Shown here one piece after another: positions 18,112 to 57,099 of a DNA stretch of 64,000 bases. Location of the stretch: contig OZ242012.1 in assembly GCA_965204795.1 (NCBI GenBank), positions 99,325 through 163,324 on the forward strand, read 5' to 3'. This DNA is from Thermodesulfobacteriota bacterium (lineage in GTDB: Bacteria; Desulfobacterota_D; UBA1144; Nemesobacterales; Nemesobacteraceae). The notes beneath the pieces are model-generated. The model saw nothing but the letters and a program-made list of their open reading frames with translations, did no database searches and was not told the DNA's origin. Position numbers and translations under genes: made by a program. Position 1 is the stretch's first letter, and each line of letters opens with the position of its first letter.

Positions 18112-18324
18112 GCGCTTGGAGACTTTTCGGAAAAGATGTGCGGAGGACATATCCGTTACGAAAAACTTGCAGGTCAAGATTGCTCTGGATGGACCGCTGG
18201 AAGGGGTATGGGTCGTATTACCCTGTTATTCGTGAGTGGGTCGGAGCTCAGGATTGCGGTATTTTTAGAAAAAGTTGTTTCCTTTTGTTCTTATGATACC
18301 GTTGTTTTACCCGATCGGTCGCTA

Positions 18325-41000: not shown

Positions 41001-41544
41001 CGAATTCGGCCAGCTGCTCATCGTCAAGGGGGGATGCTCTTTTGAACTGGTCCGCCTGTTCCTTCGCTTTGCCTGTTAATCCCGTTTTCTCCGCGAGACC
41101 CCTTATCGCTTCGGTCAAGGCGGGGAAGACGGGCCTGTTGGTGACAAGCCGGAAACGGAGCTTTTCCCGAACTTCCTTCGCGCCGTGCTTGTTTTTGAAG
41201 TCTGCGTAAGCCTTCGCGAATTTCTTGAAGGTTTTTTTGGCGTGCCTCATCCTGAAATCGATGTTCTCATGGCTTACCGAGTACTTGAACTGAACGATCT
41301 CGGTTCGCCGCGAGCTGGCAAAAGAGGGATGTTCTCCGTAGTAAAGAACTAGGTCCGCCACCTGGACGGTTTCCGAAGAGGCGTTTTCCTGGTCGGAGAG
41401 CGGAAGACCCTCCACGGCCATGCCCGCAAGCCCGCCGTCGGGAAGCAGGAGCTGCATGGCCTTTCTCGCGACCCAGGCTTCGTGGAATTCATGACCGTCG
41501 CGGGATGCTCTTGTCGAATCGGTTTTCTTCTTGGCTTTTGCCAT
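35089..41544 (-). CDS. AVAST type 3-like STAND NTPase with N-terminal Cap4-like PD-(D/E)xK nuclease (Avs3a-like), copy 1
   Basis: RASRDGHEFHEAW, ADLVLYYG, VQFKYS; Walker A AAGGMGKT; FDCFAGGAYR; Walker B LDAIDNA; GNPR; FRDEPTET; RWRAAH; long helical sensor region. Confidence 0.8.
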   Translation of the reverse strand: MAKAKKKTDSTRASRDGHEFHEAWVARKAMQLLLPDGGLAGMAVEGLPLSDQENASSETVQVADLVLYYGEHPSFASSRRTEIVQFKYSVSHENIDFRMRHAKKTFKKFAKAYADFKNKHGAKEVREKLRFRLVTNRPVFPALTEAIRGLAEKTGLTGKAKEQADQFKRASPLDDEQLAEFAGKCDIAGLAGNLRDIKKDLSNILADWSATRDAVASARLGEMRKMVRDKAGTKGEGRNVITRVDVLAALEIEREEDLLPCSSKLPEVGQIVEREQLAEAVALVPGLARPLLVHAAGGMGKTVFMRSLEEKLKDGHEAVFFDCFAGGAYRLSEDSRHLPEMGLIHIANTLAYRGLCDPVLPGSHDVPSLLRTFRRRLEQSVGTLAKASPERKLLLFLDAIDNAEVGAQDRGEDCFPTLLLESFRHDPPDGVKIVASSRFHRIPGDSALYEKFELYAFSREETKEYLRTRLSNASDVKIRVAQARSRGNPRILEYLVESDRDLLDPSKVDEEIKLDQLIQSRIDAALSNAFAQGYERNDTDSFLAGLVVLPLPVPAEEYAKSQGIEEEAVKSFASDMYPLLEITEQGLTFRDEPTETLIREEYGSSKESLKRIAENLLNHQGQSVYAARALPELLYRIGDGDQLFDLALNEKKFPEAETGTVGKVNIRLSRLKAALRYAADRKNYDRLVRLLMETATITSADRHGTEYILDHPDLVTAAKDVDAARKLFEVGPNKWQGTRDARLTIANALHGDLNEARRHAENAEDWINHWYRQPEEERPVRPGRDEPKHLDVAAIPFVWAAEGDLQNAVRFMNRWKDWYSYEVWEHVLAFSSQAGLPEAATDLPDQMKGDIAGLTAALSFVETDRASREKLVGELAEACDSLDELEFNTDESWQGKRRYNFAEGLCKACGIALSLGSRRESLSMLRLMSNTRPGMWAFFRESHSSFTSNIVLLDIVLFLFRVALTAAAEGKEIREKDVMPEDLMSLCGDMEDDVGDAEFRKKLESKTSGSSREKTREARQFLSDRLNPLLSLVKALSRLLAAPEGKADNPFTELLTAWADSEKTVNRHGTEEFSLFFQILGRKVSTFALWTRGDLGDASAEAYTKRLHEREPVKAAAAIEAAGILAKRRSTRKLAGAEAVKARPLIEREDDVRNRAYFYAELARAILPASSEEAATYFRRGLEEMDAVGSDGDYFVNELLLFAASLKGGEINEKHFHNLTNICELNIPDEPEKFFWSSFGQGLSRVAGCRGLAKLFRWNDRSKAPLSFALQPYLTALIRHGKIEPEDALALNRLSYPEEFSQGCNTETLATAIRKSHHENSEELVSEVVRQFEENRQGTLMFGLTDELASVVENVLGKESETADYIARSRRHFEQVFRVRKEYRNYRGEKDEGVSERYLETQRRKKQEVAEIVAGADSADTESLEKAIDDFVQINSFHHYPYEEFFEKIREKVPYHKRTDYLRMLAEHETLDFYRKLEELEKCGDSWKDSSASIADEYKKLGIPTTLRHADDLTRDGQLSGHYLKRISEISRVPIHKLALELVKKFAGRKASTTREVWVSLAELLSVKARKKESRKALVRLLNGPAAKLSYKASDGEWREGLYPNENPDIFSGMVWRKLGSPDPEDRWRAAHSARCFARLERWEVLDALVDKIDRRDAGAFQAAERPFYFMHAKLWLLIALARIALDEPKAAARYRDVLLKTALDEEAPHVLTAHFAAEAIRACVKAKEVDLSDGVKESLSHVNKSPFPRLRKKIMRRQSKSLPESDPEFFLGSHFYRHDVESLGRVFGKPGREVRKTMSETVRSADPSIKSMRDFAKVSGLSTSPAAGGPTRSPFQTYGWHLVWHARFMAAGRLLGKYPVTDDCSLYDDPWNAWLRAFLLTREDGLWLSDGIDRAPLNALPMLLERNDAGVLILTEDESKILKLLNIESGVLGETVVAGEWDSGDRVSVHVESALVKPENVRKIATQLYQEDRELAWLPNYCSNEYDGEYKGSDKDDCEPWIVWPGGEARLDKDDPLGSVAATRRLRIAQKFLPAMSLERKDPFGRLWQNGRVTARSVAWGHEIKGDYEEPRGGTILMCSKPLLEDLLSGNGTDLLLLIKIRRHEKVYGRELDSHPDKTAVVRIKRTLEVEVMPQDAQRSRNHPEEVPRD

Positions 41545-41777: not shown

Positions 41778-42419
41778 TCAGAACCTCTCGAAAGAACACT
41801 CGACGCCCAGCGAATCCTTGAATGATTTGTACGTCCCGTTCAGCATTTCTCGAACGGTGTTTTTCGCCCTGCCCAGCGCGGTTTTCCTCATGCGGGCCTG
41901 AAACACTCCGGATTCTCTGAAATTGAGCAGCATGGCGAAAACAAAGACCGACGAGTCCTTCCAGTAGACTTCCTTGCTGAATCCGACGGCGGCGGCCGCC
42001 CCGGCCGCTTTGCGAAACGAACTCACTTTTTTCCCGACTTCGCAGGTGTCGAGCACTATAATGGTGCGGTCGAGCTTCTCGTCCAGTTTCCGGATTTCCT
42101 TGCTGATGTCGACATCATTGTAGTCGGAGGTCTCGAGTTCGCGCCGATGTTTGCCTTTTTCGGTCATCTCGTAGGACCCGTGAGTGGAGAAAATCACGAC
42201 GTTGACGCCCCTGCTGTTGCAGTCAAGGTCGACGAAGTCTTCAATGTCGTCTCGGTACATGTGGGATATCAGGGGGCGTCGGACGACCCGCACGGGAGGG
42301 TCTCCCAGACCGAGCAGCGTCTCGGCGGAGGAATATATATGACGTATCGACCTGGAGGCTTCAATCTCCTCCGCCTCGAACCAGTCGGTCTCGAAAATCA
42401 GTATTTTCTCGTTGGCCAT
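41778..42419 (-). CDS. caspase/CHAT-like fold protein (DUF6642-like)
   Basis: ILIFETDW, VVIFSTHGS (His-Gly), IIVLDTC (Cys), AVGFSKEVYW. Confidence 0.55.
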   Translation of the reverse strand: MANEKILIFETDWFEAEEIEASRSIRHIYSSAETLLGLGDPPVRVVRRPLISHMYRDDIEDFVDLDCNSRGVNVVIFSTHGSYEMTEKGKHRRELETSDYNDVDISKEIRKLDEKLDRTIIVLDTCEVGKKVSSFRKAAGAAAAVGFSKEVYWKDSSVFVFAMLLNFRESGVFQARMRKTALGRAKNTVREMLNGTYKSFKDSLGVECSFERF

Positions 42420-42676: not shown

Positions 42677-43204
42677 TTAAGCAAACAGGTTGCCCAGCCG
42701 AAAGCGCATCGCGGCCGGACTTACCCTGAAACTTCTGGCGAGCGAGTTAACGGTTTCTTCTTCGTCTATGTCAAACGGTTCGTTGTTAAGCACTTCCGTC
42801 AAAAGATATCTGGGCATCAGTATTTCCGCGGCGAACAGGTTGGCCTCGATCTCTATTCTGCTTATTCCCGCCGCCGATAATGAATCTCTCATCAGCATGG
42901 GGAATCTTTTGTCCACATGAATTTCTTTCCCGATCAGACCCTTGTGGAGTGCTAGGTGACCGCATTCGTGCGCGATGGTGAACCTTTGCCTGTTCGGGTG
43001 ATGGAGGGAATTGATTCCGATGATTGGAGTACGGCCTTTTACGTATACCATGCCGGAGAGTTCGCCGTCCAGAGGAGAAAAAATCACTCGCGCGTCTAGA
43101 CTTTTCGCTATGCGTCGTACGGGCACGGGGGGACTGTCGATGTTGTTTTCTTGAAGGAGCCTCCCCGCTTTTTCAATTATTCGGTTTCTTCTTTTTGTGT
43201 TCAT
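42677..43204 (-). CDS. ImmA/IrrE family metallopeptidase (CapP-like)
   Basis: RQRFTIAHECGH (HExxH), EIEANLFAAEILMP, LARSFRVS. Confidence 0.92.
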   Translation of the reverse strand: MNTKRRNRIIEKAGRLLQENNIDSPPVPVRRIAKSLDARVIFSPLDGELSGMVYVKGRTPIIGINSLHHPNRQRFTIAHECGHLALHKGLIGKEIHVDKRFPMLMRDSLSAAGISRIEIEANLFAAEILMPRYLLTEVLNNEPFDIDEEETVNSLARSFRVSPAAMRFRLGNLFA

Positions 43205-43232: not shown

Positions 43233-43568
43233 CTATTTATTCGAACTTTGGGAAATTAGGTGAATTACTTCGTTGCGCTGGGAATCGGTTAGGTCTTCAC
43301 CGGAAACCGGTATGGGAGATGAAAGAACTTCCTGGTGTTCGCGAGATGGCACTGTCGGCAGAAGCTGGTCAGGAGAATCAAGCTGCAACGCATGGGCGAT
43401 TGTGTAAAGGTGATGCACGAGAACCTGCTGGCGTCCAGCTTCAATGTTGGCCAGCGAAGCCCGGGAAATCCCGGCATCCTTGGAGAGCCGGACCTGAGTG
43501 TAGGTCGCCTTTTTGCGGAAACGCCTGATATTCTCTCCCAGCTCTAGGTAGATTCTCTTTTGCTCCAC
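43233..43568 (-). CDS. XRE family HTH transcriptional regulator (CapH-like)
   Basis: LGENIRRFRKKATYTQVRLSKDAGISRASLANIEAGRQ. Start moved from 43589 to GTG at 43568 because the promoter overlaps the longer start. Confidence 0.88.
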   Translation of the reverse strand: MEQKRIYLELGENIRRFRKKATYTQVRLSKDAGISRASLANIEAGRQQVLVHHLYTIAHALQLDSPDQLLPTVPSREHQEVLSSPIPVSGEDLTDSQRNEVIHLISQSSNK

Positions 43569-43574
43569 AATAAC

Positions 43575-43603
43575 TTTATAACTGCGCACTTTTTACATGT
43601 CAA
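43575..43603 (-). promoter_or_regulatory. sigma70 promoter for HTH/ImmA, probably leaderless
   Basis: Minus strand TTGACA (43603-43598)-17 nt-TATAAA (43580-43575); the GTG start begins 7 nt after the -10 box. Confidence 0.7.
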
Positions 43604-43645
43604 CTCGATTGTTTGTCAGAATAGCGTTTTTCAAGATTTGTCTTC

Positions 43646-43674
43646 TTGACAATCGGTATTTGTTAAGGTAGGTT
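43646..43674 (+). promoter_or_regulatory. sigma70 promoter for the MBL / E2-E1-JAB-patatin operon
   Basis: TTGACA-17 nt-TAGGTT, back to back with the HTH promoter. Confidence 0.65.
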
Positions 43675-43823
43675 AAAAGGAGACTTGAAAGCTTATTCAA
43701 TCAAGTTGTTGTGTCCAGAGCGAGTTATAAAAATTGCGGTTAAAGGTCATAAGAAAGTTCTGGAAACAGAAAAAAGACAATGGTTTTATCCAGGAAAGAT
43801 ATTTCCTGAAGGAGGAACGTATA

Positions 43824-44960
43824 ATGGCTATAACGCCACCCGAAAAGGGATTTATTTTCTGGCCGGTCGGAACCGGCGACAGCACCACCGTCCGCATCTC
43901 GGAGTCCATGTATCTTCAGGTCGACCTGCGCCACATGGCCAAGTCGGAAGACGACGAAGACACCGCGTGGCCGGTTATCGACGAGTTGACCGGAATACTG
44001 CCCGAGGTTGACGGGGCTCCTTATCTGTCGGCCTTCGCCTTGACGCATCCGGACAAGGATCACTGTCAGGGATTCAAGGAACTTCTCGACAGGATTACCA
44101 TATCGGAATTGTGGCTTTCGCCTCGCATATTCCGCGAGTACAGAAAGGATCTTTGCGAGGATGCAAAAGCTTTCGGCAAAGAGGCGATGCGCCGGGTCAA
44201 GGCAACCATCGAAGCGGGAGGCGACCCCGGTTCCGGGGACAGGGTCCGCATCATAGGTTACGATGACCTGCTGAGGGAAGAAGCCTTTACAGGATTTCCT
44301 CCGCAGTTTCTCTCGATTCCGGGACAAGCCGTTGCTTTTGTTGATGGCCGATATGTGGGTGCAGACTTCGAGGCTTTTGTCCACGCGCCGTTCAAGGACG
44401 ACAGCCACGGCGAGCGCAACGACTGCAGCGTCGCGTTTCAAATCACTCTCAAATCCGAGTGCGGTGTGGGAAATGCGCTGCTGATGGGAGACCTTCAATA
44501 TCCTGTCATTCGCCGGATATTCGACTGTAGCGACAGGGACACATTGAACTGGAACGTGCTTCTGGCTCCGCATCACTGCTCAAAGTCCGTTATGTACTCG
44601 AAAGACGAAGGAGAGGAAGAGGAAACCCTCAAGGCCGATATTGTCACGGATATGGCGAACGCCGCGCTTGACCCGGGATATGTCGTGTCAAGTTCCGAGC
44701 CGGTTCCCGACAGCAACGAGCCGGGAGACAATCCTCCTCACGCCTTGGCCAAGATTCAGTACAACAGCATAGTGCCGAACGAATTCATCTGCACGCAGGA
44801 GCATCCCGACGAAAACGACCCGCAGCCGATCATATTCGAAGTCGGGGAGAACGGTCTCAGGTATGTGGGCGAGGAAGATGTTTCCGAGCCCATTGCAGAC
44901 ACGCTTAAAAAAATAAGCCCCGGTGGTGTTCCACCGAGGTCGCCGAAGGGGTTCGGATAA
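43824..44960 (+). CDS. metallo-beta-lactamase-fold (ComEC-like) hydrolase with C-terminal ...PPRSPKGFG tail
   Basis: ATG at 43824 after AAGGAGG; PVGTGDS, THPDKDH (HxDxDH), MGDL, APHHCS; stop overlaps the next ATG (TAATG). Confidence 0.88.
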   Translation: MAITPPEKGFIFWPVGTGDSTTVRISESMYLQVDLRHMAKSEDDEDTAWPVIDELTGILPEVDGAPYLSAFALTHPDKDHCQGFKELLDRITISELWLSPRIFREYRKDLCEDAKAFGKEAMRRVKATIEAGGDPGSGDRVRIIGYDDLLREEAFTGFPPQFLSIPGQAVAFVDGRYVGADFEAFVHAPFKDDSHGERNDCSVAFQITLKSECGVGNALLMGDLQYPVIRRIFDCSDRDTLNWNVLLAPHHCSKSVMYSKDEGEEEETLKADIVTDMANAALDPGYVVSSSEPVPDSNEPGDNPPHALAKIQYNSIVPNEFICTQEHPDENDPQPIIFEVGENGLRYVGEEDVSEPIADTLKKISPGGVPPRSPKGFG

Positions 44961-47900
44961 TGCCGATTACCGACGGACAGAAGTTTGCGCTGAACCAGCT
45001 CCGACGCATTGCCGGTGCCGAAGGATCTTCACTACGTATACGCAACAAACATAAAGAAACCGACAGCGACGGTCGGCTGATGGTGGATATATCGCTCGAT
45101 TGCTCCCGATACGGGCACGAAGAAGGAGGGCTGAAGTTCCAATCTAGGGAAAGTGTTCGGATTTACATACCGCAGGAATTTCCACACGTCTTGCCTTGCG
45201 CGGAAACGGTACACACGCGTTTCCTAGGCTATCCGCATGTCCAGTGGGGCAGGCGCTTGTGTCTGTATCAGTCTCCAGACACCCAATGGGAGCCGAGTCT
45301 CGGGATGATAGGATTCATCAAGCAGCTCGCCGACTGGTTTGAGAAAGCCGCGCTCGGCGAGCTAGACGACCCCGAAGGACCTTTACACCCCCCTGTGGCT
45401 TACAGAAACGGCACCCAAACTAAAGTGGTGATTCATACCGACACGCCCGGTCGCGACCAGTGGCCCTGGTTCGGTTTCGCCGTGTTTTCTCGGACCGACG
45501 CCAATCTCATCGAAATAGACGGCTGGTCGCGTGTCCATACCTTGCGGACGGACAAGCGGTTTGCCGCCGCTCTACTGCTTGATTCTGAATTGCCCTTCGA
45601 GTACCCGAAGAATGTGTGGAACTTGTTTCGTTGCCTTGAGGACCGAGGTGTTAACACAGCATCCGTTTTGGTGCGCTTGATGCTGGCTTCCAAGAGCTTG
45701 AGCAAGGATGAACCGCTTTACATGGTGATCGGCGCTCCTTCACGCGGAACCGCTGGGAGCTTGGAACACAGGCTTCAGCATTTGAGCGTATGGGAAATTC
45801 CCTCCTCTGCGGCGTCATATCTACGCATCGCATCTGACAGTTGCGAGCTTCTGTCGAGATACAAGGGGCAGGAAACTCCTGAGGAGATTCACAGGCTTTT
45901 GCACGATGTTCTCGACACAGTTCACAAATGGATGACCACCAGCAAAGTTAATTGGTGTCGCGTGATGGAAAACAGAAAGGAAATTATTCAACGCAGGGAT
46001 CTCGGAACGCCGATGGACAAATTACACGGCAGGTCGGTTGCCTTGTTCGGTTGCGGCGCGCTTGGGAGCGCCGTGGCTGAATATCTAATTCGCGGCGGCG
46101 TGAAGCGTCTTTCCCTGTACGACAATGCCGTCGTAAGTCCGGGCATTCTCGTGCGTCAAAATTACGAGCGAAGAGACATAGGGTTTTCCAAGGTTAGTTC
46201 CCTCAAAAGGCGATTGGATGCTATTGGGACCGACTGCGAAACCGTAGCTTACAGCCAAGACATAGTTCAGACGACGTTGAGAGATACTAAATTTGCGGAC
46301 GGCATCGATCTGGTCATTGACGCTACCGCGTCGTTGCGCGTACGCCATCGCTTTGAGGAGTTGCGGAAAACCGAAAAATTACACGTTCCAGTGGCGGCGA
46401 TGATGGTTAGCGGGGCGGCTCTTCATGGTGCTTGGGTATTGGCTCCGGCGGAATATTCGGGCGGGCCTCGGGATGTCTACAGACGGTTGGGTCTTGCGGC
46501 GGCCAACCGGGACTGGATGAAACATTGGTCGGACGCGTTCTGGGATTCCGACTCCGAGGAAGTTCCGAGACAGCCCGAACCCGGCTGTTCCGACCCTACC
46601 TTCGTCGGTTCGCATGTGGATGTGGCCGCCCTGGTCGCGCGTATGCTCAACCATGTTGCTGCCGGCCTGTCGGATGCTTCTGCTTCTGCGAAAGGAGGGT
46701 TTCTGGCGCGGGATGCAACTTCCCATTCCGATTTCGTCGCCACTTTTTCTCCCGACATAGTTGTCGCAGGTGGCAGCTGGGAGTTTCGAGTAGCGGCAAA
46801 CGCTTGGCGGGACGCGAGAGGCTGGATTCGCGCCGGCGGACGGGAACGGACGACGGACTGCGAGACAGGGGGAATTTTGTTCGGCCATCTGGACGAAAGC
46901 CTGCGCGTTGTGTGGATTTCTGCCGTAAGCGGTCCGCCGGAAGACAGCGGGTTCTCTCCACGGCTGTTCACCTGCGGAGTGGAGGGAGTCAAGGATCTCG
47001 GCGAGCATTACTCGGCTCATACTTCCGGGGCGGTCGGTTATCTGGGGACATGGCATTCCCATCCCGTAAGCGGTCCGAGCCCAAGCCGTACCGACTTTGA
47101 AGGCATCGCCGGCATATTCGCCGAGTCTCCGACAGAAGGCGTTTATCAGGTCATGATGATCGTTGGTCGCGCCGCGGACAAAGCTCCCGAGCTCGGCCTG
47201 TATCTGTTTGAAAAACAAAAGATGAACGGCCTCGGCGACTTGAATAAGTTGACGATGACTGGTTGCGGCGGGTCCGTGAAGGCTCCGTCGCCTAGACCGT
47301 ATCCGTTTTCCATGGGACTGGCTTTGTCCGGAGGCGGTTCCCGCGCGGTCGCGTTTCACTTGGGCACGTTGCGGGCTCTTGAAGACTTGGGGCTGCTTGA
47401 CGACGTCAAGGTGATTTCCGGCGTTTCTGGCGGGGCCGTGACGACCGGACTTGTCGGATACAGTCAAGATCCCTTTGCTTCGATCGACGCGTTGACGGTC
47501 AAAACGCTGCGCCGCGGGCTGCTCAAGCCGTCTTTGCTTAAGTTGCTGAATCCGAAGCGTCTGGTTCCCGCTCTTTTCAACTGGGTTTTCGTGGCGGTCC
47601 CGAGCCTGTTTTTGTTTCTGATCAGACTGTCGCTTAATCAGGGAGCGGGACTGATGCCCGAGGGAATGCGTGGATGCAGAAAGTATATTGATCGGCTTCA
47701 ATGGCCTTTTTCGCGGCGGTGTTCTCGAACTCACGCACTTGCCGACGCGGTCGCTGACATCGTCGGCGACGGCACCTGCGCAGCGCCGACTAGGCAGAAC
47801 AAGGATGTAGTGTTGAACGCTTGCGAACTGCGCACTGGAACCGCATTCCGCGTGAGCAACGAGCGGTTCGGGTCGTGGCGATTCGGCTACGCTCCCGCAA

Positions 47901-48469
47901 GCGACCTCCGTCTTGCCGAGGCCGTCACCGCTTCCGCGGCTTATCCTCCTCTGGTGCCTCCTTACGACTGGAAGCATGTTTTCCAGCGAAACGGCGAGTC
48001 GCGGCAGGAGCGGGTCATCGTGACCGACGGGGGAGTTTTTGAAAATCTGGGCGTCAGCGTAATGGAGCCGGGTCGGGATACGAAGGTGAGCGGGATATCG
48101 TATTCACCAGAAGTCATCATAACCAGTGACGCCGGGGTCGGTCAGTTCAGCGGCGGCGATCTGCCGTCCACATGGCCGGAACGCATGGTTCAGGCGGTCA
48201 ACAGCATCATGCGCAAGGTTAACGACGCTACCAAGAAACGGTTGCACGACTGCGCGAGACGCGGCGAACTGAATCGATTCGTTTACGTCAATCTGGGGCA
48301 GAAGGACGAGAAGGTTCCGTTCAAGTCGCCCGGATGGGTTGACCGCGAAGCCGTCATCGATTATCCGACCGATTTCAACGCCATGTCTCAAAAGGACTTA
48401 AACCTTCTCTCGAACCGTGCGGAAACGTTGACCCGGTCGCTGATCACTCAGTACCTGCTGTCAGACTGA
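44960..48469 (+). CDS. E2 - E1(ThiF) - JAB - patatin fusion protein
   Basis: E2: FP...PHVQWGRRLCLY (Cys101). E1: GCGALGS, LVRQNY, IDATAS, PEPGCSDPTF (Cys543). JAB: ETGGILFG, WHSHP..PSPSRTD. Patatin: LSGGGSR, GVSGG (Ser823), DGG (Asp1023). Confidence 0.9.
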   Translation: MPITDGQKFALNQLRRIAGAEGSSLRIRNKHKETDSDGRLMVDISLDCSRYGHEEGGLKFQSRESVRIYIPQEFPHVLPCAETVHTRFLGYPHVQWGRRLCLYQSPDTQWEPSLGMIGFIKQLADWFEKAALGELDDPEGPLHPPVAYRNGTQTKVVIHTDTPGRDQWPWFGFAVFSRTDANLIEIDGWSRVHTLRTDKRFAAALLLDSELPFEYPKNVWNLFRCLEDRGVNTASVLVRLMLASKSLSKDEPLYMVIGAPSRGTAGSLEHRLQHLSVWEIPSSAASYLRIASDSCELLSRYKGQETPEEIHRLLHDVLDTVHKWMTTSKVNWCRVMENRKEIIQRRDLGTPMDKLHGRSVALFGCGALGSAVAEYLIRGGVKRLSLYDNAVVSPGILVRQNYERRDIGFSKVSSLKRRLDAIGTDCETVAYSQDIVQTTLRDTKFADGIDLVIDATASLRVRHRFEELRKTEKLHVPVAAMMVSGAALHGAWVLAPAEYSGGPRDVYRRLGLAAANRDWMKHWSDAFWDSDSEEVPRQPEPGCSDPTFVGSHVDVAALVARMLNHVAAGLSDASASAKGGFLARDATSHSDFVATFSPDIVVAGGSWEFRVAANAWRDARGWIRAGGRERTTDCETGGILFGHLDESLRVVWISAVSGPPEDSGFSPRLFTCGVEGVKDLGEHYSAHTSGAVGYLGTWHSHPVSGPSPSRTDFEGIAGIFAESPTEGVYQVMMIVGRAADKAPELGLYLFEKQKMNGLGDLNKLTMTGCGGSVKAPSPRPYPFSMGLALSGGGSRAVAFHLGTLRALEDLGLLDDVKVISGVSGGAVTTGLVGYSQDPFASIDALTVKTLRRGLLKPSLLKLLNPKRLVPALFNWVFVAVPSLFLFLIRLSLNQGAGLMPEGMRGCRKYIDRLQWPFSRRCSRTHALADAVADIVGDGTCAAPTRQNKDVVLNACELRTGTAFRVSNERFGSWRFGYAPASDLRLAEAVTASAAYPPLVPPYDWKHVFQRNGESRQERVIVTDGGVFENLGVSVMEPGRDTKVSGISYSPEVIITSDAGVGQFSGGDLPSTWPERMVQAVNSIMRKVNDATKKRLHDCARRGELNRFVYVNLGQKDEKVPFKSPGWVDREAVIDYPTDFNAMSQKDLNLLSNRAETLTRSLITQYLLSD

Positions 48470-48538
48470 CCGGGTTATTCGGAGAAAAAATTTTTGAGAA
48501 TTGGACGGGATTGAAAATTAAGGAACGAAGGTGATTCA

Positions 48539-49444
48539 ATGAGCATTATCAAATCTTTTTCCGTGGGAAACGGGGACATGTTCTACATAAAGCACAATGC
48601 CGACAGCTTCTCCATAATAGACTGCTGCATGAACGAGGAGGACAGGAGGGAGATTACGGAAGAGCTGAAATATCAATCTGGGTACAAGACCATCAAGCGA
48701 TTCATATCCACGCACCCCGACTATGACCACATAAGAGGACTTGCGTACCTCGACGGACAGATGCCCATAGTGAATTTTTACTGCGTGGCTAACAAAGCAA
48801 CCAAAAAAGACGAGACCGACGATTTCAGGGAATACTGCTCCTTGCGGGATTCTGACAAGGCTTACTATCTGAAAAAAGGATGCAGTCGGAAATGGCTGAA
48901 CGAATCCGACAATCAAAGGGGTGGAGCCGGAATTCACATACTCTGGCCGGACACGGGCAATCAACATTACAAAGACGCGCTCAAGCAGGCAGCAGACGGA
49001 GGCAGTCCCAACAACATTTCTCCTATCATACGGTATTCGCTTGAACATGGAGTCACCGCTCTGTGGATGGGCGACTTGGAAACCGACTTCATGAAGGCTA
49101 TAGGAGCGCCGCCGGGCCTCGGCAAAGTCGATATTCTCTTCGCTCCCCACCACGGAAGAAAGAGCGGAAGGGTGCCGAAATCCTGGCTGGACATCCTGAA
49201 CCCCGGGGTCATAGTCGTCGGAGAAGCTCCTTCCGAAGACCTGCACTATTACGGTTCCTATGACACGATAAAGCAGAATTCCGCCGGAACGCTGCTTTTC
49301 GAATGCGTACAGGGCCGGATAGACATATACGTGGAAAGTTCCTCGTATTCGGAATCCTTCCTTGAAAGTAAAGGCTTGCCAAGGATGAATCATGGCATGT
49401 TTTACATCGGCAGCTTGAATTGCGGCTCGGGGCAGAGAGTCTGA
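48539..49444 (+). CDS. second MBL-fold (ComEC-like) hydrolase
   Basis: SVGNGDMFYI, STHPDYDH, WMGDLE, APHHGR. Confidence 0.85.
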   Translation: MSIIKSFSVGNGDMFYIKHNADSFSIIDCCMNEEDRREITEELKYQSGYKTIKRFISTHPDYDHIRGLAYLDGQMPIVNFYCVANKATKKDETDDFREYCSLRDSDKAYYLKKGCSRKWLNESDNQRGGAGIHILWPDTGNQHYKDALKQAADGGSPNNISPIIRYSLEHGVTALWMGDLETDFMKAIGAPPGLGKVDILFAPHHGRKSGRVPKSWLDILNPGVIVVGEAPSEDLHYYGSYDTIKQNSAGTLLFECVQGRIDIYVESSSYSESFLESKGLPRMNHGMFYIGSLNCGSGQRV

Positions 49445-50123: not shown

Positions 50124-50876
50124 TCAGTCGGTCTTCCGACTCGCGTGCGTCCTCTCGTACCTGCGCACGGCGTCGTCGAGTCTTTTCATTGCCCGGGCGA
50201 TGTCGTCCGGCGGCCCCGCGCAGTCGGTTTCCTCTTCCCTGAATTCGCCTGAGGGAATTTTTTCCGGACGCGCGCTTTTTCCGCTTTCTTCGGCTTCGCG
50301 TTCTTTTCCTCCCGAAGGAAGTCTCGTTGCCCTTCGGGCGTAGCGGGTCAGCTTGTCGGGAACGACCTCGTCGACCGCCGCTAGGAGTTCGTCGTTCTCC
50401 ATCCCCGTGCGCCCGAACGCCTCTTTCAGTATGGCCTTGACCAGATGTCTTGAGCTTTGGTCGATTTCGGATGCGATATGGACCAGTTCCTTCTCGGGAG
50501 GATCTTCGGGCCGCGGCTCTACCACTATCCTTGAATCGTCGGAGAAATAAGCTTGAAGAGTGGCGAACAGCTTCTCGTAACGCTCGAAGGGGTCGCCTTG
50601 GGGAAAATTCCTGCGCGAACTCCAGAGCTTCAGGATCAGGTCCGCGCATTCGTCTTCGAGCGTCGGGTCCGTTCCGGCCGCCTCGATCTTCTCGGCCAGG
50701 TGATGAGCGATCCACTGACCGGTAACGTTGCGATGCTCCTCAGCCCCTATGTCCCTGGCTATCAGGGAGCCAAGTTCCAGCAGTTTTTCCGTCCGAGTTT
50801 TCGACGGTTCCGTTTCTTCTGAGGATGTAGACCCTGACGAAACGGACTTCTTTTCTGTCTTTTTCATTGTAGTCAC
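50124..50876 (-). CDS. avs3b: AVAST type 3 accessory protein Avs3b-like
   Basis: LLELGSLI...TGQWIAHHLAEKIEAA...CADLILKLWSSRRNFP..DPF; directly follows and overlaps Avs3a copy 2. Confidence 0.75.
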   Translation of the reverse strand: MTTMKKTEKKSVSSGSTSSEETEPSKTRTEKLLELGSLIARDIGAEEHRNVTGQWIAHHLAEKIEAAGTDPTLEDECADLILKLWSSRRNFPQGDPFERYEKLFATLQAYFSDDSRIVVEPRPEDPPEKELVHIASEIDQSSRHLVKAILKEAFGRTGMENDELLAAVDEVVPDKLTRYARRATRLPSGGKEREAEESGKSARPEKIPSGEFREEETDCAGPPDDIARAMKRLDDAVRRYERTHASRKTD

Positions 50877-53800
50877 CTTTGGATTTTCTTGTTTTGACTA
50901 CCGCTACAAGATCGTTTTCCAGATACTCCAGCGCCCGCGCGAGCGACTCGGCATCCATCGCGAGCCTGAACCCGTCGGTCGCCGTGTCGGACCGACTGCG
51001 CGCCCAGAGGTCGTGGTCGTCGTTGGGTTGAGTGCTCCACGCTTCGTAACGGCAGATTTCCCTTTCCGATTTGTCTGAACGCCACGTACCGCTCCACGGG
51101 CAGGGTCGGGAGAGTTTCAAGGATTCCGCGATTCGCGTCCCCGGTTCCCTGTCCACTCCCGTCGTTCCGTACCGCATCGGGTCGAACGAATCAAAGCCGT
51201 CGTAAGAATGGCTTGCGATAAGCGCGCCCGCCCGCGCGGCGAATTTTTCAATCCGTTTTTCGTCGTCGTCGTCGAGATCTTCTTCGTTCGGCACTTCCAT
51301 GTACCACGGGTCCCGCGCCGCCTCGAACGCCCTGAGAAGCGCCCCTGCCGTTTCCGGCGGCACCAGAGAACATTCCACCCGGACGGTTTGCGCGGCTTCC
51401 CGTTTTCCCGAAAGATACCTTATCGTTTCCCGATACGAGGAGATGATCGGTTCTCCCCGCGTCTCCGTGAACAGCTCGGCGAGCGAGTCTCGTTCTTCCG
51501 GAGGTTTCAGGCAGTCGGGGTCGGACACGCCTGGTCGCAGCCAGTATCTGGGTTCCGGCGGTATTGGCCCGCGCAGGTCGGAGAGCCACGTGCCCGCGTA
51601 CAGAGTGTCCCAGCGCTTGATCCATTCCTCGAAAGGAATTTCGTCGCAGTCTTCATGTTCCGCGAGCTTCCGCGTTTTCAGGAACTCGCCGACAACGACG
51701 CACATGGCGTGCCATTCGAGATACCGCGGGTACGGTTCCGCGGGGAGGTAGCTTCCCCCGTGTCTCGACATGGCCGATTGGCTGAGATGCCTGCGGCGGT
51801 CGTTGAGCCGATATTCGTCGTCCTTGTTTGCGAACCCCTGCTTGACGATCCAGCTGTACGCCCGCTCGAGAAATTCTTCCGCGGACACGTCCGCGAAAAC
51901 CTCCAGGGCCGGATCGTACCAGTACGGCAGAGTGTCCAGAATATCGAAACTGAGACGTACGCCGTCCGGCATTTCCATGGAACCGAGAGCGCCTCCGACC
52001 CGTCGCTCGGACAGTTTCGAGCTACCCTCGAGAGGGTGGGCAAGAAGCTTCGCCCGGTCGGCGGACACTCTGGGCGTTCCCGCGGTCTTGTCCGTCTGCG
52101 TCAGCGCCCGTTTCACGTAGTGCTCTATCATGACGTGGGGCGGACCGTCGGTCGCGAGCCGCAGGACGTCGCTGTCGACCGCCGCTACGGTTTCGGGAGA
52201 TTCGAACGCGATGCGGGCCAGGGTCATCGCCAGAAACAGCCGCGCGGTCAGTTCGTGAAACGGCATGTCGCCGAACGCGTAGGTTCTGGGCTCGGCGGAC
52301 AGTGCGTGTCGAACGAGAGCCGGGACGACGCCTGTTTCGCCCAGCCGGACGAACGCCCGGACGGAATGCGCGGCGCGCCAGCGGAGGCGCACGTCCATGT
52401 CCCCGAGAAAGCGGTAGAGAAACGCGGCGGCGATTTCGTCTGGAGCGTCCGGCAGGTCGTCAACCGGAATGTCGTGTCGCTCCGGCGATGTCTCCCGAAC
52501 TTTGACTCTGTCGTCCAGCCTCGAGACGTACCAGTCGAACACTTCTCCCGCTTGCTCCTCGGGCAGGGCGCCGACCAGCATCGCGGTGTATTTCAGAAGA
52601 CCGTTCGAGCTTGCCCTGTGGGCGTTTTTCTCCACCGCGGCGACGATAGTGTCCCTGAGCTTCTCGCCTGTAAGGCCCGACTCTTTGACCAGAGACTCGA
52701 AAGTCTCGGTGCCGTGAACCATAATCGTCGGACTCAGTTCGACGAGCAGACCGGGAAGGTTTTTTCTCGCCCACCCCTTCACGGCTTCTCCTTCCCACTT
52801 CTTCAGGCGGTCCGCTATGTGCGACGCCTTGTTCGCGGGATAAGGTTTTGACTTGGCTATGCGGGCGAGCGCGTCCAGATGCCCGATTCGGTCGCCGGGC
52901 TTGACTCGTGCCGCCAGGGCGGAGTAATAGGTCTTTTCGTCGCGATAGCCGGCGGCCCGGTTGGTCTCCATCGTAGCCGACATAGAGTCGGGGTCAAGAA
53001 CGTCGACTCCCGACCAGTTGGGTTTTTGCTGGTTTTCGGCGCCGGTTCCGGGAAGCGGGTAGGAGTCCGTCGCCGGTTTTTCCGCAAGAGAGTTGCTTTT
53101 CAGAAACGCATGCGCGTCGGCCAGATTCCTGAATGCGGCGTTGGGTTTCCCGAGCGATTCCGCCAGGCGTTTGAGCTGTCCGCTCATCTCCTTCGGCGCG
53201 TCCGGAGCGAGATTCGTCAGTTCGCGTCCGGCGACCTCGGTAAGAATCTTGTCGCCGACGCTTTCGGGGAGTTCTTTTGCGGACTCGCATATCGAATCCG
53301 TCAGGAAGGGGCCGTGGTCTCCCGCAAGCAGGGAAAGCGCCGCTACATGAGACGCGGGCAAGGTCTTGCGGCTGAGAGCCTTTCGCAAAAAGATTTCCAC
53401 GTACATGTCCGTCTCGACGAATCCCTCGTCCGCCCACCGGTTGAGGACGCAGGCGGCTACGGGAGTCGACAAGGAGGCGATGGCTTCCATTGACCTTGCG
53501 TACGGGAAGTTCTTTTCGTCTCCCAGAAGCATGTCGGCCCGCCTGACGAGCCTCGCGGTATCTTCGGCGCGCTTTCGGTTCCCGGGAACGTCTTTGGAGA
53601 ACCTGCCCGCCATTTCCAGAAGGCAGTCGAGCTGATGAATCAGTTCATAGTCGATGTCCTCGACGGTCTTCAGGGCTTTTTCGAAGTACGTGCGCGAATA
53701 GGCGTCGCTGACCGGAAGCAGGAGACGGCTGATTCTTATCAATGCGGAGGCTTTTTCCATGGGGCGCGAATTGGAATTTTCAAGAGACTGGACATAGTCG

Positions 53801-56800: not shown

Positions 56801-57099
56801 CCCAAGGTCCAATTCTTTTCTGGAGCCGTAGGCGAATACCTGAGCTGAACGATCTCTATCCGGTCGAACGGATCCTCTTCCGATTCTCCGTAGAATAATG
56901 CGCAGTCGACTCCGTCCCATGACCGGTTGTTTTCTCCTGAACTTGCGGCGGGTATGCCTTCGACCGTCAGGCAGACCAGCCGGGACTCGGGGTCAAGCAA
57001 CTCCAGCGCTTTTCTCATTGCCCAGATTTCGTGAAACGCGTCCCCCGCGTTCGAGGCGCGCGCTCCTAGGAAATCTATATTGCCGGCTTTCGGTTTCAT
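50740..57099 (-). CDS. avs3a: AVAST type 3 STAND NTPase/nuclease Avs3a-like, copy 2
   Basis: RASNAGDAFHEIW, VDCALFYG, VQLRYS; Walker A GGGGHGKT; YDCYGAGGYR; Walker B IDAADNA; GGNPRVQ; RWRAAH; DTLPYWY; followed by Avs3b. Confidence 0.8.
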   Translation of the reverse strand: MKPKAGNIDFLGARASNAGDAFHEIWAMRKALELLDPESRLVCLTVEGIPAASSGENNRSWDGVDCALFYGESEEDPFDRIEIVQLRYSPTAPEKNWTLGRLTRNTKQRGNNSVARRLADAFNGIIKECGLNYEDARKTVTISLVTNQSISPSLADIVKRISDGKMDSEQAEKLRKATGLPKTKPRLFCECLDLKGGERSRAELETDVTRKIGKMIDTDARDTSSRILMEVNKRMLPEGRGERITRITVESWLGVGWSSGLFPCEARLETAENLIERSVASGLAEAVRNSGLVCFHGGGGHGKTSVVQGLEALLPGSKVVLYDCYGAGGYRDPSRYRHRPREAFTQLSNELARKTKTPSLFPVPNTDDPDVIKSFRRRLEQAAELIETGKTGALLVILIDAADNAVAASQIPTPADECFVHDLVRMSELPDNVRIVISTRTSRKNSLNLPLERKEVACPPFSPEETGRFLAQRFPRLPRSSVEDFHHLSGGNPRVQASALAGRDRFAEALEFLRPHGKSLEDIYRNQMNEAFLRAGGEDAFQELFCAAVSIMPFPIPARLLGTVCGTDENRIEEICGELVPNLRAVGRGVELANEDFENFCEKRGANRTDESRQRIADTLHDNRFDSEYAAIHLFDALLAAGRNEEIFNLLDEEDSTRAIEDIGVRRRTDLARLQISMSVISLYNDDVKAVKRILIGSEAIETDWKTNETLIENLDLSARFCQEEICRLVLNDLEQRGRQGPLLAYLSREYALAGNAPASREAFRRVQEKNRSRDQDGWNPEKDEVVAVVTGFYKNDGWKKAEKHCERCSELLSVFLKYELLKFVALSEGCERIRSIRQEMNRRQRWIACVLVKRRGGEISAEELEDGLEALMDFNFGCINIGDLRKFERSKSRLLVDDLLFFAELCGRRGVDSGRIAELVGKILPRNERKIEHAMLIRPYLIDFCFRAARLENPGENVALEVKNVFQFPEIQRDTDSDSGTKRPRPFEGNIRDAELLLPFYAALAAGYAKKPDEDPNGAAGGLLEKAKAIFSRVRSWELELTAEMLGRRVFDLHIINGTNVGHALDFFDNLTPRAWPFDSLQLATCGGDFFDKVINLLDDYVQSLENSNSRPMEKASALIRISRLLLPVSDAYSRTYFEKALKTVEDIDYELIHQLDCLLEMAGRFSKDVPGNRKRAEDTARLVRRADMLLGDEKNFPYARSMEAIASLSTPVAACVLNRWADEGFVETDMYVEIFLRKALSRKTLPASHVAALSLLAGDHGPFLTDSICESAKELPESVGDKILTEVAGRELTNLAPDAPKEMSGQLKRLAESLGKPNAAFRNLADAHAFLKSNSLAEKPATDSYPLPGTGAENQQKPNWSGVDVLDPDSMSATMETNRAAGYRDEKTYYSALAARVKPGDRIGHLDALARIAKSKPYPANKASHIADRLKKWEGEAVKGWARKNLPGLLVELSPTIMVHGTETFESLVKESGLTGEKLRDTIVAAVEKNAHRASSNGLLKYTAMLVGALPEEQAGEVFDWYVSRLDDRVKVRETSPERHDIPVDDLPDAPDEIAAAFLYRFLGDMDVRLRWRAAHSVRAFVRLGETGVVPALVRHALSAEPRTYAFGDMPFHELTARLFLAMTLARIAFESPETVAAVDSDVLRLATDGPPHVMIEHYVKRALTQTDKTAGTPRVSADRAKLLAHPLEGSSKLSERRVGGALGSMEMPDGVRLSFDILDTLPYWYDPALEVFADVSAEEFLERAYSWIVKQGFANKDDEYRLNDRRRHLSQSAMSRHGGSYLPAEPYPRYLEWHAMCVVVGEFLKTRKLAEHEDCDEIPFEEWIKRWDTLYAGTWLSDLRGPIPPEPRYWLRPGVSDPDCLKPPEERDSLAELFTETRGEPIISSYRETIRYLSGKREAAQTVRVECSLVPPETAGALLRAFEAARDPWYMEVPNEEDLDDDDEKRIEKFAARAGALIASHSYDGFDSFDPMRYGTTGVDREPGTRIAESLKLSRPCPWSGTWRSDKSEREICRYEAWSTQPNDDHDLWARSRSDTATDGFRLAMDAESLARALEYLENDLVAVVKTRKSKGDYNEKDRKEVRFVRVYILRRNGTVENSDGKTAGTWLPDSQGHRG

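Follow-up and report, generated by a model that had tools for sequence, protein, structure and literature searches.

Among the relatives of type II CBASS, the system catalogued as 6A-MBL combines two adjacent genes, one encoding an E2-E1-JAB triple-module protein and the other a specialised MBL-fold protein, and typically holds no further enzymatic module. This operon type was first reported in 2006, as row 6a in Table 1 of Iyer, Burroughs and Aravind (PMC1779556), a paper from which the word 'patatin' is absent. Later texts credit it with activity against phage: van den Berg et al. 2024 (Cell Host Microbe 32:1427) is given as the source of its validation, it is named as a known defence against jumbo phage, and it is listed with the ubiquitin-related defences validated in P. 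aeruginosa. Such pathways conjugate an enzyme of their own with a fused E2-E1, described as Atg7-related, and JAB regulates them negatively (10.1101/2024.11.21.623953). The same writer and eraser logic operates in type II CBASS, where a fused E2-E1 activates the C-terminal end of an enzyme belonging to the system and JAB releases it. Bil/Bub systems also bring E1/E2/JAB-type conjugation into defence islands, with a peptidase that exposes the reactive C-terminus of pre-proteins (10.1101/2024.11.21.623953). However, they conjugate a small ubiquitin-like protein, whereas the two-gene operon described here would conjugate a presumed 378-aa enzyme.

That operon lies in a 64,000-nucleotide stretch of DNA (the window, analysed as a whole). 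The MBL ORF begins on the plus strand with an ATG at 43824, has GGAGGA ahead of its start as a ribosome-binding site, ends with a TAA at 44958–44960, and its C-terminal end reads GGVPPRSPKGFG. The large ORF (44960–48469, plus strand) encodes 1169 aa in the order E2-E1-JAB-patatin. The two genes overlap by one base, the last A of the TAA being the first base of the ATG (TAATG), and they alone constitute the operon, with no ORF between them. The features of the locus are as follows.

42677–43204, minus strand: CapP-like Zn-metallopeptidase of the Peptidase_M78/IrrE family, 175 aa, HECGH (Pfam PF06114, 4.8e-24)
43233–43589, minus strand: CapH-like XRE-family helix-turn-helix protein, 118 aa (Pfam HTH_3, 2.6e-09)
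43590–43823, no strand: 234-bp intergenic region shared by the regulator pair and the MBL operon (from sequence; promoter inferred)
43824–44960, plus strand: MBL-fold protein of the 6A-MBL system, 378 aa, presumed conjugated protein (NCBIfam NF058524)
44874–44957, plus strand: flexible C-terminal tail of the MBL, residues 351–378, ending G376-F377-G378 (codons 44949–44957; from pLDDT and conservation)
44960–48469, plus strand: 6A-MBL cap2_3 protein with C-terminal phospholipase, 1169 aa (NCBIfam NF058523, PADLOC, Pfam)
45074–45409, plus strand: E2-like domain, residues 39–150, catalytic Cys101 at 45260–45262 (Pfam Prok-E2_A)
46013–46759, plus strand: E1 adenylation domain, residues 352 to about 600, nucleotide loop 364–369, Cys543 at 46586–46588 (Pfam ThiF)
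46850–47170, plus strand: JAB/JAMM metallopeptidase domain, residues 631–737, E635, H699-x-H701, S709, D712 (Pfam Prok-JAB)
47318–48466, plus strand: patatin-like phospholipase domain, residues 787–1169, GGGxR 791–795, Ser823 at 47426–47428, Asp1023 at 48026–48028 (Pfam Patatin)
47552–47647, plus strand: hydrophobic helical insert within the patatin domain, residues about 865–896 (model, Kyte-Doolittle)

Both proteins scored above the equivalog cut-offs of NCBIfam: the MBL matched NF058524 ('6A-MBL_enzyme') with 295.2 bits (cut-off 220, 6.2e-88), as the sole match above cut-off in the genome, and the 1169-aa protein matched NF058523 ('6A-MBL_cap2_3') with 359.9 bits (cut-off 320, 2.9e-107). 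The core system, described in the original prediction as known but poorly characterised, is therefore already catalogued. The 665 positions of NF058523 aligned to residues 57–734, reaching the end of the model, and the window protein continues for about 435 residues beyond it. By these profile matches the operon is a 6A-MBL system, and because the patatin domain (787–1169) extends beyond the cap2_3 model, we file it as a variant and not as a typical member.

The single four-domain chain is real. Its 1169 codons form an open frame, and Pfam identified Prok-E2_A at residues 39–150 (1.7e-21), ThiF at 352–468 (2.3e-20), Prok-JAB at 631–737 (1.2e-08), and Patatin at 787–1033 (1e-18, 68.7 bits against a cut-off of 27.7), while PADLOC matched the protein to its E1-E2 model PDLC00857 (8.3e-81) and its JAB model PDLC00890 (2.7e-21). 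Every catalytic residue named beforehand is intact and, together with several others, invariant across an alignment of 30 fused homologues (48–83% identity): C101 of E2; the E1 GCGALG loop (G364, C365, G366, A367, G369) together with R399, Q400, N401, K411, D454, and C543; and E635, H699, H701, S709, and D712 of JAB. In the patatin domain, G791–G793 and R795, G821-V-S823-G-G, and D1023-G-G were invariant both in this set and in a set of 55 sequences, and they comprise the oxyanion GGGxR, the GxSxG nucleophile, and the catalytic Asp in DGG/DGA that mark patatin-like phospholipases. That the chain could be an artefact of assembly or annotation, or a decaying gene, draws some support from frameshifted or interrupted copies in eight relatives (L023, L032, L036, L037, L040, L062, L078, L080). 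However, the window frame is colinear with its homologues, an intact fused ORF covering the whole E2-E1-JAB part was present in 50 related loci, and in runs X5 and X6, assembled in a separate study, a single contig each covers 43600–48600, differing by 39 and 36 substitutions, respectively, and by 0 indels. These independent contigs also span the JAB-patatin linker (47150–47320), the region singled out for verification, without insertions or deletions. Given the homologue alignment, the intact related loci, and the X5 and X6 contigs, artefact or decay is refuted, with a negligible residual probability.

We assessed whether the MBL is the protein conjugated by the E2-E1 enzyme, as had been proposed, and found that it likely is. 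Its metal-site residues (H75, D77, D79, H80, H187, D223, H250) were invariant in 57 sequences, as were G376 and G378 at the C-terminus, with F377 conserved in at least 90%. A G-F/Y-G motif occurred at the C-terminus, or 1–11 residues before it, in 67 of 68 partner MBLs. The tails had 0 (4 proteins), 1 (3), 2 (14), 3 (11), 4 (33), 6 (1), or 11 (1) residues after the motif, a sequence pattern like that of a ubiquitin-type precursor, and the G-F-G tail was also present in patatin-less members (L069, L072, L074, L078, L083, L084). An AF2 model of the MBL (pLDDT 87.9, pTM 0.87) placed residues 351–356 and 373–378 below a pLDDT of 50, so that the tail is disordered in the model. Models of residues 1–600 of the large protein in complex with the MBL scored 0.79, 0.80, and 0.77 against 0.00 for the best control. 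Among 80 solved complexes 58 attain that level, as do 2 among 110 mismatched pairs, and the score may partly reflect likeness to Cap2-cyclase complexes already solved. The runs had at least 94% of contacts in common, with a partner pLDDT of 87. The modelled interface joins E2 residues 16–124 with MBL residues 274–284, 311–319, and 352–376; residues 377–378 are absent from the confident contacts. In the model, body and tail of the MBL sit on the E2 domain and not in the E1 adenylation pocket.

The closest PDB match of the MBL was the beta-lactamase-like domain of ComEC (9ic4; profile 2e-05, Foldseek 3.7e-12, TM-score 0.74 normalised to the target), followed by the phosphocholine esterase Pce and RNase J. 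This fold likeness, at 18% identity, suggests a putative nuclease role.

Type II CBASS shares several components with the window, namely Cap2-type E1-E2 and Cap3-type JAB modules (the PADLOC matches above), upstream CapH/CapP-type regulators, and a patatin-fold effector. The JAB domain is related to Cap3 but, on its profile score, is not an equivalog, because it reached only 26.1 bits against the NCBIfam cut-off of 200. The patatin part, modelled as residues 776–1169 (AF2 pLDDT 90.4, pTM 0.89), matched the folds of CapE (9ion, 4.1e-11), patatin (4pka, 5.1e-11), and AbCapV (9kej, 1.0e-10) in Foldseek, and its likeness to plant patatin and PlpD was equal to that for CapE and CapV (4e-11 to 1e-10). 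ExoU and VipD were among its PDB profile matches. By sequence, the patatin part does not appear to be a CapV or CapE orthologue, since it had no PADLOC 2.0 match at 1e-3 and its profile match to the CapE-type lipase was only 0.024. The window differs from type II CBASS moreover in that E2-E1, JAB, and lipase form one chain, that the presumed conjugated enzyme is a hydrolase and not a cyclase, and that most partner MBLs in its family would need C-terminal trimming. As the original prediction had noted for the cyclase, no CD-NTase was found: the 2.085-Mb genome (99.22% complete) gave 0 matches to SMODS (PF18144).

The hydrophobic stretch within the patatin domain (about 865–896) was found in 29 of 30 aligned fused homologues and forms one long helix in the AF2 model (domain residues 90–121), with a best 19-residue Kyte-Doolittle mean of 2.04. 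Because such a mean was 1.6 or higher in only 26 of 55 homologues, the helix is, by hydropathy, typical of the clade of the window but not universal.

The fusion itself proved common. It occurs in at least 120 protein clusters (PF01734 in 120 of the 120 best matches listed), and when residues 1–770 alone were searched, the 150 nearest representatives of clusters at 50% identity included 41 with PF01734. In NCBI records these proteins are labelled only 'patatin-like phospholipase family protein' or 'ThiF family adenylyltransferase'. As anticipated, no description of an E2-E1-JAB-patatin fusion was found in the literature searched, outside which lies the full text of the key 2024 paper of van den Berg et al.; the patatin-fused version of 6A-MBL is apparently common but undescribed. 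Of 79 related loci, 58 carry the fusion, 10 encode patatin in a gene of its own that overlaps the preceding one, and 7 lack patatin. These proportions are skewed, since a patatin motif served as one of the two patterns in the scan. Three of the seven patatin-less loci (L069, L074, L084; two genomes) instead continue with a gene for a small membrane protein that crosses the bilayer several times and has 3–4 hydrophobic segments. Judged by these gene arrangements, patatin occupies an exchangeable third 'effector slot' that is fused, separate, replaced, or absent in relatives. Since some relatives encode patatin separately or have a membrane protein in its stead, comparison of the loci shows that covalent fusion is not needed for any coupling between conjugation and effector. 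Activation must therefore be able to occur in trans, as would be expected of protein contact and of a diffusible signal alike.

The operon is flanked by two Avs3a-like genes and PDC-M48B, with TPR-GreAB-C-PIN, PRTase-CE, and NADAR genes in a lower-GC stretch; the genes flanking the operon carry assignments other than a ubiquitin-like modifier. Among 24 further genomes from the genus, only 2 carry the system, and the all-fused clade of the window spans seven phyla as named in the records. CapH/CapP is defined as an HTH and a PF06114 peptidase gene placed upstream on the opposite strand (10.1101/2022.04.27.489752), and HTH_3 and PF06114 genes are found here in that layout, 234 bp from the MBL start, with the peptidase gene directly following the HTH gene. 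The mechanism reported for CapH/CapP is ssDNA-stimulated cleavage of the repressor followed by operon de-repression (10.64898/2026.05.16.725639). A consensus promoter scan of 43590–43823 returned no strong site. A complete divergent CapH/CapP-like pair was present in only 2 of the 79 related loci (L040, L041), with partial matches in a few more.

On balance, it seems probable that the locus encodes a 6A-MBL anti-phage system (an 'MBL pathway', akin to type II CBASS) that comprises three modules, the phospholipase being set off by events at the conjugation machinery. The divergent CapH/CapP-like repressor-peptidase pair would hold the operon low and raise its expression upon DNA damage or phage stress. 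The E1 domain would then adenylate Gly378 of the MBL, which would be handed as a thioester first to Cys543 and then to Cys101 before being joined to an amine of a putative target, and the JAB domain would reverse the conjugation. In most relatives, with 1–11 residues after G-F-G, JAB may also trim the precursor and expose the glycine; the MBL of the window, ending at G-F-G, would be already 'mature'. The output would be damage of the abortive-infection type through an MBL nuclease or phosphodiesterase, and in the patatin version the phospholipase would additionally attack the membrane. We propose that the phospholipase stays inactive until something happens at the conjugation machinery, with no cyclic nucleotide as its trigger; MBL loading or transfer, or assembly of the complex on a target, are candidate release events. 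Release in this way is what we consider most likely, yet it is the least supported step.

An alternative closer to CBASS is that conjugation primes the MBL to release a small nucleotide-derived product that activates the patatin or membrane protein, as cGAMP does CapV. The preprint of the Corbett lab (10.1101/2024.11.21.623953) terms the conjugated proteins 'signaling enzymes', the slot is modular as in CBASS (patatin fused or separate, multi-pass membrane proteins), and the cyclic-dinucleotide-activated CapE and CapV are among the best structural matches of the patatin. Even so, we regard a second messenger as unlikely: the MBL has a hydrolase fold with nucleases and phosphodiesterases as its nearest relatives, the SMODS search of the genome was empty, the patatin is distant from CapE in profile and unmatched in PADLOC, and a freely diffusing signal does not require an effector fused to the E2-E1-JAB chain. 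A bolder proposal, to which we give a lesser but appreciable chance, dispenses with any nucleotide second messenger: the phospholipase, or the small membrane proteins of relatives, would respond directly to the state of the ubiquitin-like machinery. Its trigger may be loading, transfer, or removal of the C-terminal glycine of the MBL, and its boldest form is an Atg8-style attachment of the ComEC-like nuclease to a membrane lipid.

In that form, the glycine of the MBL would be joined to the amine of a membrane lipid, as in Atg8-phosphatidylethanolamine. Atg8/LC3 precursors end in ...F-G followed by a short removable extension, which the conserved MBL tail resembles, and the parallel with Atg7/Atg3-Atg8, offered as an analogy only, extends to an Atg7-like E1 and to a tie to membrane lipid through the fused lipase, whose hydrophobic helix thereby belongs to the same chain as the ligase. 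The nearest structural match, ComEC, is itself a membrane-associated nuclease. However, the MBL has no homology to Atg8, the resemblance comes down to two residues, patatin is dispensable in several lineages and gives way to unrelated membrane proteins, and an invariant Ser/Asp dyad fits a plain lipase. We therefore consider lipid conjugation quite improbable, and the accompanying notion that patatin and helix bring the enzyme to the membrane, or else reshape or detach the lipid anchor, with a ComEC-like nuclease stationed there, is similarly far from probable. Patatin-like lipases also serve as secreted effectors, and the runs containing the stretch are labelled sponge or marine metagenomes; together with the ExoU and VipD matches, this would accommodate a symbiont function in membrane lipids or host interaction, with the defence-island location incidental. 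Such a role is highly improbable given that both proteins exceed the cut-offs of curated anti-phage families, that the operon sits among Avs3-like, PDC-M48B, TPR-GreAB-C-PIN, and related genes, that the system is patchy within the genus, and that its clade mixes phyla. Moreover, no secretion signal or secretion genes were seen beside the operon on inspection by eye.

The preferred reading, a 6A-MBL defence system whose phospholipase answers to the conjugation machinery, bears on type II CBASS and its relatives, among which the MBL pathway is the least studied, and specifically on the purpose of Cap2-type conjugation and the target to which the enzyme is attached. Here a single polypeptide joins writer, eraser, and a readily assayed killing enzyme, its only partner is one protein, and no cyclic nucleotide intervenes, so any coupling of conjugation to effector could be reconstituted with two proteins. 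The conserved G-F-G tail with its short extension offers a precise, testable site for adenylation and JAB trimming, for which the naturally 'mature' MBL of the window and relatives with 1–11 extra residues are ready-made controls. The patterns of fused, split, replaced, and absent patatin define the effector slot of 6A-MBL and are useful for annotation. If the phospholipase were indeed switched on directly by the conjugation machinery, bacteria would possess an immune pathway that uses the conjugation of a protein as its very signal to fire a membrane-lytic effector.

The operon consists of two genes on the forward strand, and reading of the ORFs together with Pfam agreed with the coordinates, domain order and residue numbers of the original prediction throughout:

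43824-44960, +, MBL gene: ATG at 43824 preceded by GGAGGA, 378 codons, end ...GGVPPRSPKGFG-TAA
44960-48469, +, large gene: 1169 codons, the first base of its ATG being the last base of the MBL stop
Large protein, residues 39-150: Prok-E2_A domain (Pfam)
Large protein, residues 352-468: ThiF domain (Pfam)
Large protein, residues 631-737: Prok-JAB domain (Pfam)
Large protein, residues 787-1033: Patatin domain (Pfam)

Pfam had no match for the 378-aa MBL protein. Curated equivalog models of NCBIfam recognized both products: the large protein scored 359.9 bits (cut-off 320) against NF058523, 'anti-phage 6A-MBL system cap2_3 protein', and its partner 295.2 bits (cut-off 220) against NF058524, 'anti-phage 6A-MBL system MBL-fold protein'. 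Systems of this kind are already known and curated. Of the four-domain architecture that had been put forward as new, the fusion is real and we found no description of it in the literature searched, but its E2-E1-JAB/MBL core is already catalogued under these two models. The active sites of E2, E1, JAB, MBL and patatin are intact. Invariant across 30 homologues of identical architecture (48-83% identity) were E2 C101; the E1 nucleotide loop G364-C-G-A-x-G369 with R399, Q400, N401, K411, D454 and C543; JAB residues E635, H699, H701, S709 and D712; and the patatin motifs G791-G-G-x-R795, G821-V-S823-G-G and D1023-G-G. The metal ligands of the MBL (H75-x-D77-x-D79-H80, H187, D223 and H250) were likewise invariant in a 57-sequence alignment.

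The primary validation of 6A-MBL is reportedly that of van den Berg 2024. We found no description of a patatin-fused 6A-MBL in the literature searched by component domains; van den Berg 2024, Ledvina 2023 and supplements were beyond reach and may hold one. The Ledvina preprint has no 'lactamase', 'Pycsar' or 'metallo' in its text. The name 6A-MBL derives from Table 1 (row 6a) of Iyer, Burroughs and Aravind (2006; PMC1779556), whose text lacks the word 'patatin', though the other component domains are present; judged by title and opening abstract lines, it alone among the papers found to combine several of these domain terms deals with such systems. The published papers that we found using the name only name the system: later work lists it among known jumbo-phage defences, and a review describes it as a ubiquitin-related defence confirmed in Pseudomonas aeruginosa. 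A Corbett-lab preprint (10.1101/2024.11.21.623953) groups 'Type II CBASS, Pycsar and MBL pathways', in which a fused Atg7-related E2-E1 joins the pathway's own enzyme to unknown targets and the JAB peptidase acts as a negative regulator or maturase. The MBL as the conjugated protein is the field's current view and not a new idea.

The match to NF058523 reached the last of the model's 665 positions at residue 734, with about 435 residues beyond. The original prediction had an uninterrupted reading frame crossing the JAB-patatin linker, and contigs from two sequencing runs of another study (X5 and X6) upheld this: each covers 43600-48600 unbroken and without indels, the substitutions numbering 39 and 36, respectively. 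Contigs of a third run (X7) left some bins uncovered and were uninformative on the fusion. Given the X5 and X6 contigs and the many fused homologues, the patatin fusion is not an artefact. A homologue search recovered 591 proteins (E<=1e-3, among 8000 candidates scored); in the 120 best matches listed, the predicted combination of Patatin, ThiF and JAB recurred in all 120 and Prok-E2_A in 117, lengths were 810-1187 aa, and few source names were given ('patatin-like phospholipase family protein', 'ThiF family adenylyltransferase' and a JGI composite name). A patatin-free query (residues 1-770) was also run against every 50%-identity cluster representative and matched 5058 proteins (E<=1e-3), 376 of them also at E<=1e-30. 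With an HMM built from our large-protein alignment, a patatin domain was detected in 41 of the best 150 representatives (109 were without), 37 of these 41 being at least 1000 aa long, so that about one in four of the nearest clusters belongs to the fused kind.

We scanned genomes, one per species, for related loci. A single protein as query of the genome contigs returned no relative; the alignment as query succeeded, and 136 relatives were confirmed and 79 loci kept, in which ORFs were called and then searched with the parts of the window's operon.

Patatin state at the 79 related loci; one of the two scan patterns was a patatin motif, which biases the proportions towards patatin
58/79, patatin fused: eight are fragments or interrupted
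10/79, patatin a separate gene: overlapping or directly after the JAB end in L071, L073, L079, L081, L082, L086, L088, L090 and L091; more distant in L085
7/79, no patatin within 3.5 kb downstream: L068/L069 (identical copies in one genome), L072, L074, L078, L083, L084
4/79, not callable (contig end or truncated gene): L070, L075, L080, L089

Patatin is thus tied to the 6A-MBL core by fusion or by gene order, and both the fused and the split version are frequent in public data and apparently undescribed within the literature searched. Pfam found no match in the downstream genes of five patatin-less loci (L069, L072, L074, L083 and L084). In three of them, the next gene after E2-E1-JAB encodes a small membrane-type protein with 3-4 strongly hydrophobic segments:

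L069, 4047-4535: 162 aa
L074, 7338-8030: 230 aa
L084, 7283-8077: 264 aa

The L074 and L084 proteins are mutually homologous (E about 9e-8), and all three are possible alternative membrane effectors of 6A-MBL systems. Because hydrophobic proteins take this place in these patatin-less loci, the site after JAB acts like a slot for exchangeable, membrane-directed effectors.

A tree of the E2-E1-JAB part was built from 70 rows (69 loci and the window, ten fragmentary loci excluded). The window grouped with two Candidatus Dadabacteria records (SH-aLRT 100), and this group is nested in a clade of 29 rows (SH-aLRT 99), every one of them fused, with seven phyla named in their record titles. The three patatin states were clustered on the tree (7 changes vs a shuffle mean of 18.2), and patatin-less rows were nested among fused rows; as the tree is rooted only at its midpoint, we do not say whether fused forms preceded split ones or the reverse. 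Interrupted copies occur in several relatives (L010/L037 of genome G024, L023, L032, L036, L040, L062, L078 and L080), reflecting either decay or assembly error: the G024 MBL gene stops at about residue 299, the L023 MBL gene is split by ~1.2 kb, the L032 E2-E1-JAB gene is split by ~1 kb, and further copies show frameshift-like breaks. Another genome of the window's genus (G009:C6; L005/L012) has a 756-aa open frame with JAB (4.7e-11) and E1 (4.3e-06) matches to the query, which may be a different, patatin-less E1/JAB system.

The MBL gene lies 5' of the large gene wherever upstream DNA is present in the 79 related loci. Of the MBL ORFs, 68 extend into the C-terminal part of the profile, and 67 of these have G-F-G (one G-Y-G) within their last 30 residues, the sole exception being L091 (T-F-G). 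The motif is followed by no residue in 4 loci, 1 in 3, 2 in 14, 3 in 11, 4 in 33, 6 in 1 and 11 in 1, and these extensions differ in sequence among loci; G-F-G is the exact C-terminal end in the window's MBL and in the 64%-identical L013. Across the 57 aligned sequences neither G376 nor G378 varies, and conservation of F377 is at least 90%. Ubiquitin-type precursors have just such a signature: a conserved glycine motif at the terminus, followed by a short extension that varies and can presumably be removed. On this pattern, the JAB (or another peptidase) would mature most MBLs of the family, and the window's copy would need no maturation.

An AF2 model of the MBL (pLDDT 87.9, pTM 0.87) has a tail disordered from about residue 351. 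Its nearest solved relative is the ComEC beta-lactamase-like nuclease domain 9ic4 (profile 2e-05; Foldseek 3.7e-12, TM 0.74 on target, 18% identity), with the phosphocholine esterase Pce and RNase J as the next structural matches, and we read the MBL as a predicted nuclease or phosphodiesterase. Complex prediction with large-protein residues 1-600 and the MBL, each with its own alignment, gave scores of 0.79, 0.80 and 0.77 vs 0.00 for the best of three controls; the tool's calibration of its mark (58/80 solved complexes, 2/110 mismatched pairs) is a rough guide here, with our own alignments used. The runs share at least 94% of contacts, and the partner pLDDT is 87. Confident interface residues are 16-124 on the E2 side, including invariant H85 and R87 and the 108-124 segment, and 274-284, 311-319 and the tail 352-376 on the MBL side. 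In the model the MBL and its tail dock on the E2 domain of the large protein, and Gly378 lies outside the E1 pocket. Cap2-cyclase complexes have already been solved, and some of the score may be due to likeness to them. The model supports, rather than shows, binding of the MBL to the E2-E1 part of the large protein.

Modelled alone, the patatin part (residues 776-1169; pLDDT 90.4, pTM 0.89) has its hydrophobic stretch as one long helix, domain residues 90-121 (protein residues 865-896). Over 19 residues its mean Kyte-Doolittle value is 2.04 in the window, and only 26/55 homologues, mostly of the window's clade, reach 1.6. Fold matches to CapE, plant patatin, CapV and PlpD were about equal (4e-11 to 2e-10); profile matches over the N-terminal motifs were to PlpD, ExoU, VipD and cPLA2, with CapE at only 0.024, and a PADLOC search of this part gave no match. 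The domain appears generic and, judged by its motifs, catalytically intact, and by sequence it does not look orthologous to the CBASS lipases CapV and CapE. The predicted absence of a CD-NTase was borne out genome-wide, where no SMODS/CD-NTase gene was found. An analogy with ExoU and ubiquitin was left out, as the ExoU profile match is limited to the first ~60 residues.

The operon lies among candidate regulators and other defence genes:

18136-20527, +: adjoining PRTase-CE (3.1e-60) and NADAR (1.3e-22) genes
20535-26561, -: TPR-GreAB-C-PIN type, 2008 aa (HTH_upstream_double_PIN, PIN-TPR-GreABC, HNH, permuted GreAB-C)
26730-28643: UvrD-type helicase
31392-35072, -: TPR-GreAB-C-PIN type, 1226 aa (HTH_upstream_double_PIN, PIN-TPR-GreABC)
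35089-41544, -: Avs3a-like giant, 2151 aa (N-terminal third of PADLOC Avs3a, 7.2e-207; borderline NACHT match)
42677-43204, -: PF06114 Zn-peptidase (HECGH)
43233-43589, -: XRE-type HTH gene, directly upstream of the operon on the opposite strand
48539-49444, +: PDC-M48B, a second MBL-fold gene, 70 bp downstream of the operon (PADLOC 1.6e-138)
50740-57099, -: Avs3a-like giant, 2119 aa (N-terminal third of PADLOC Avs3a, 3.5e-166)
60108-61616: KAP NTPase

The HTH and PF06114 genes show the divergent upstream layout published for CapH/CapP, which are described as a repressor and a peptidase, the latter activated by ssDNA, through which immune operons are de-repressed following DNA damage (10.1101/2022.04.27.489752; 10.64898/2026.05.16.725639). 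The complete divergent pair recurs in L040 and L041, with partial matches in a few other loci and any match at E<=0.01 in 13/79, and is an optional add-on. Consensus promoter and terminator scans stayed at shuffle level (5 vs 3.4 and 9 vs 8.8), with no usable site, and none of the runs listed as containing this stretch was of RNA. A 213-aa ORF downstream of the CapP-like gene (41778-42419, -) had no Pfam, NCBIfam or related-locus match. We rejected 48539-49444 as a third operon component: PADLOC identifies it as PDC-M48B, and none of the 79 related loci has an equivalent, which makes it a candidate defence gene in its own right. The models of the 6A-MBL enzyme and of Avs1a also match it weakly at the N-terminus.

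At about 16-62 kb GC is 0.46-0.60, whereas the high-GC stretches (about 4-16 kb and 62-64 kb) have 0.67-0.72; this would fit a defence island that is large and acquired. A full-length 6A-MBL homologue occurs in only 2/24 other genomes of the genus and 0/16 from other families of the order. The window has no tRNA genes, and so no island boundary by that route, and no integrase was seen among the ORFs scanned. The two Avs3a-like giants flank the operon, and DUF6884 and DUF4238 genes also lie beyond the PRTase-CE and NADAR pair.

By analogy with the 6A-MBL family and type II CBASS, the E1 would adenylate Gly378 of the MBL, which would pass as a thioester to C543 and then C101 before transfer onto an amine; the JAB would undo conjugation and, in relatives, also trim MBL precursors. 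The MBL hydrolase and the phospholipase would be the damaging outputs of an abortive-infection-type response, with operon expression probably controlled by the CapH/CapP-like pair. How the lipase is released is the least certain step. With no cyclase present and the lipase usually in the same chain, we favour control by the conjugation machinery itself. Activation of the lipase by a diffusible product of the MBL is a serious rival, given that patatin or membrane proteins may also be encoded on their own; we nevertheless consider it improbable. A bolder reading, Atg8-like conjugation of the MBL to lipid, seems to us less probable still.

With the patatin-fused 6A-MBL, the role of Cap2-type conjugation, and the way in which it fires an effector, can be studied with only two proteins. 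Three concrete features open to testing are added to the 6A-MBL picture: the tail motif, the effector slot and the upstream regulators.
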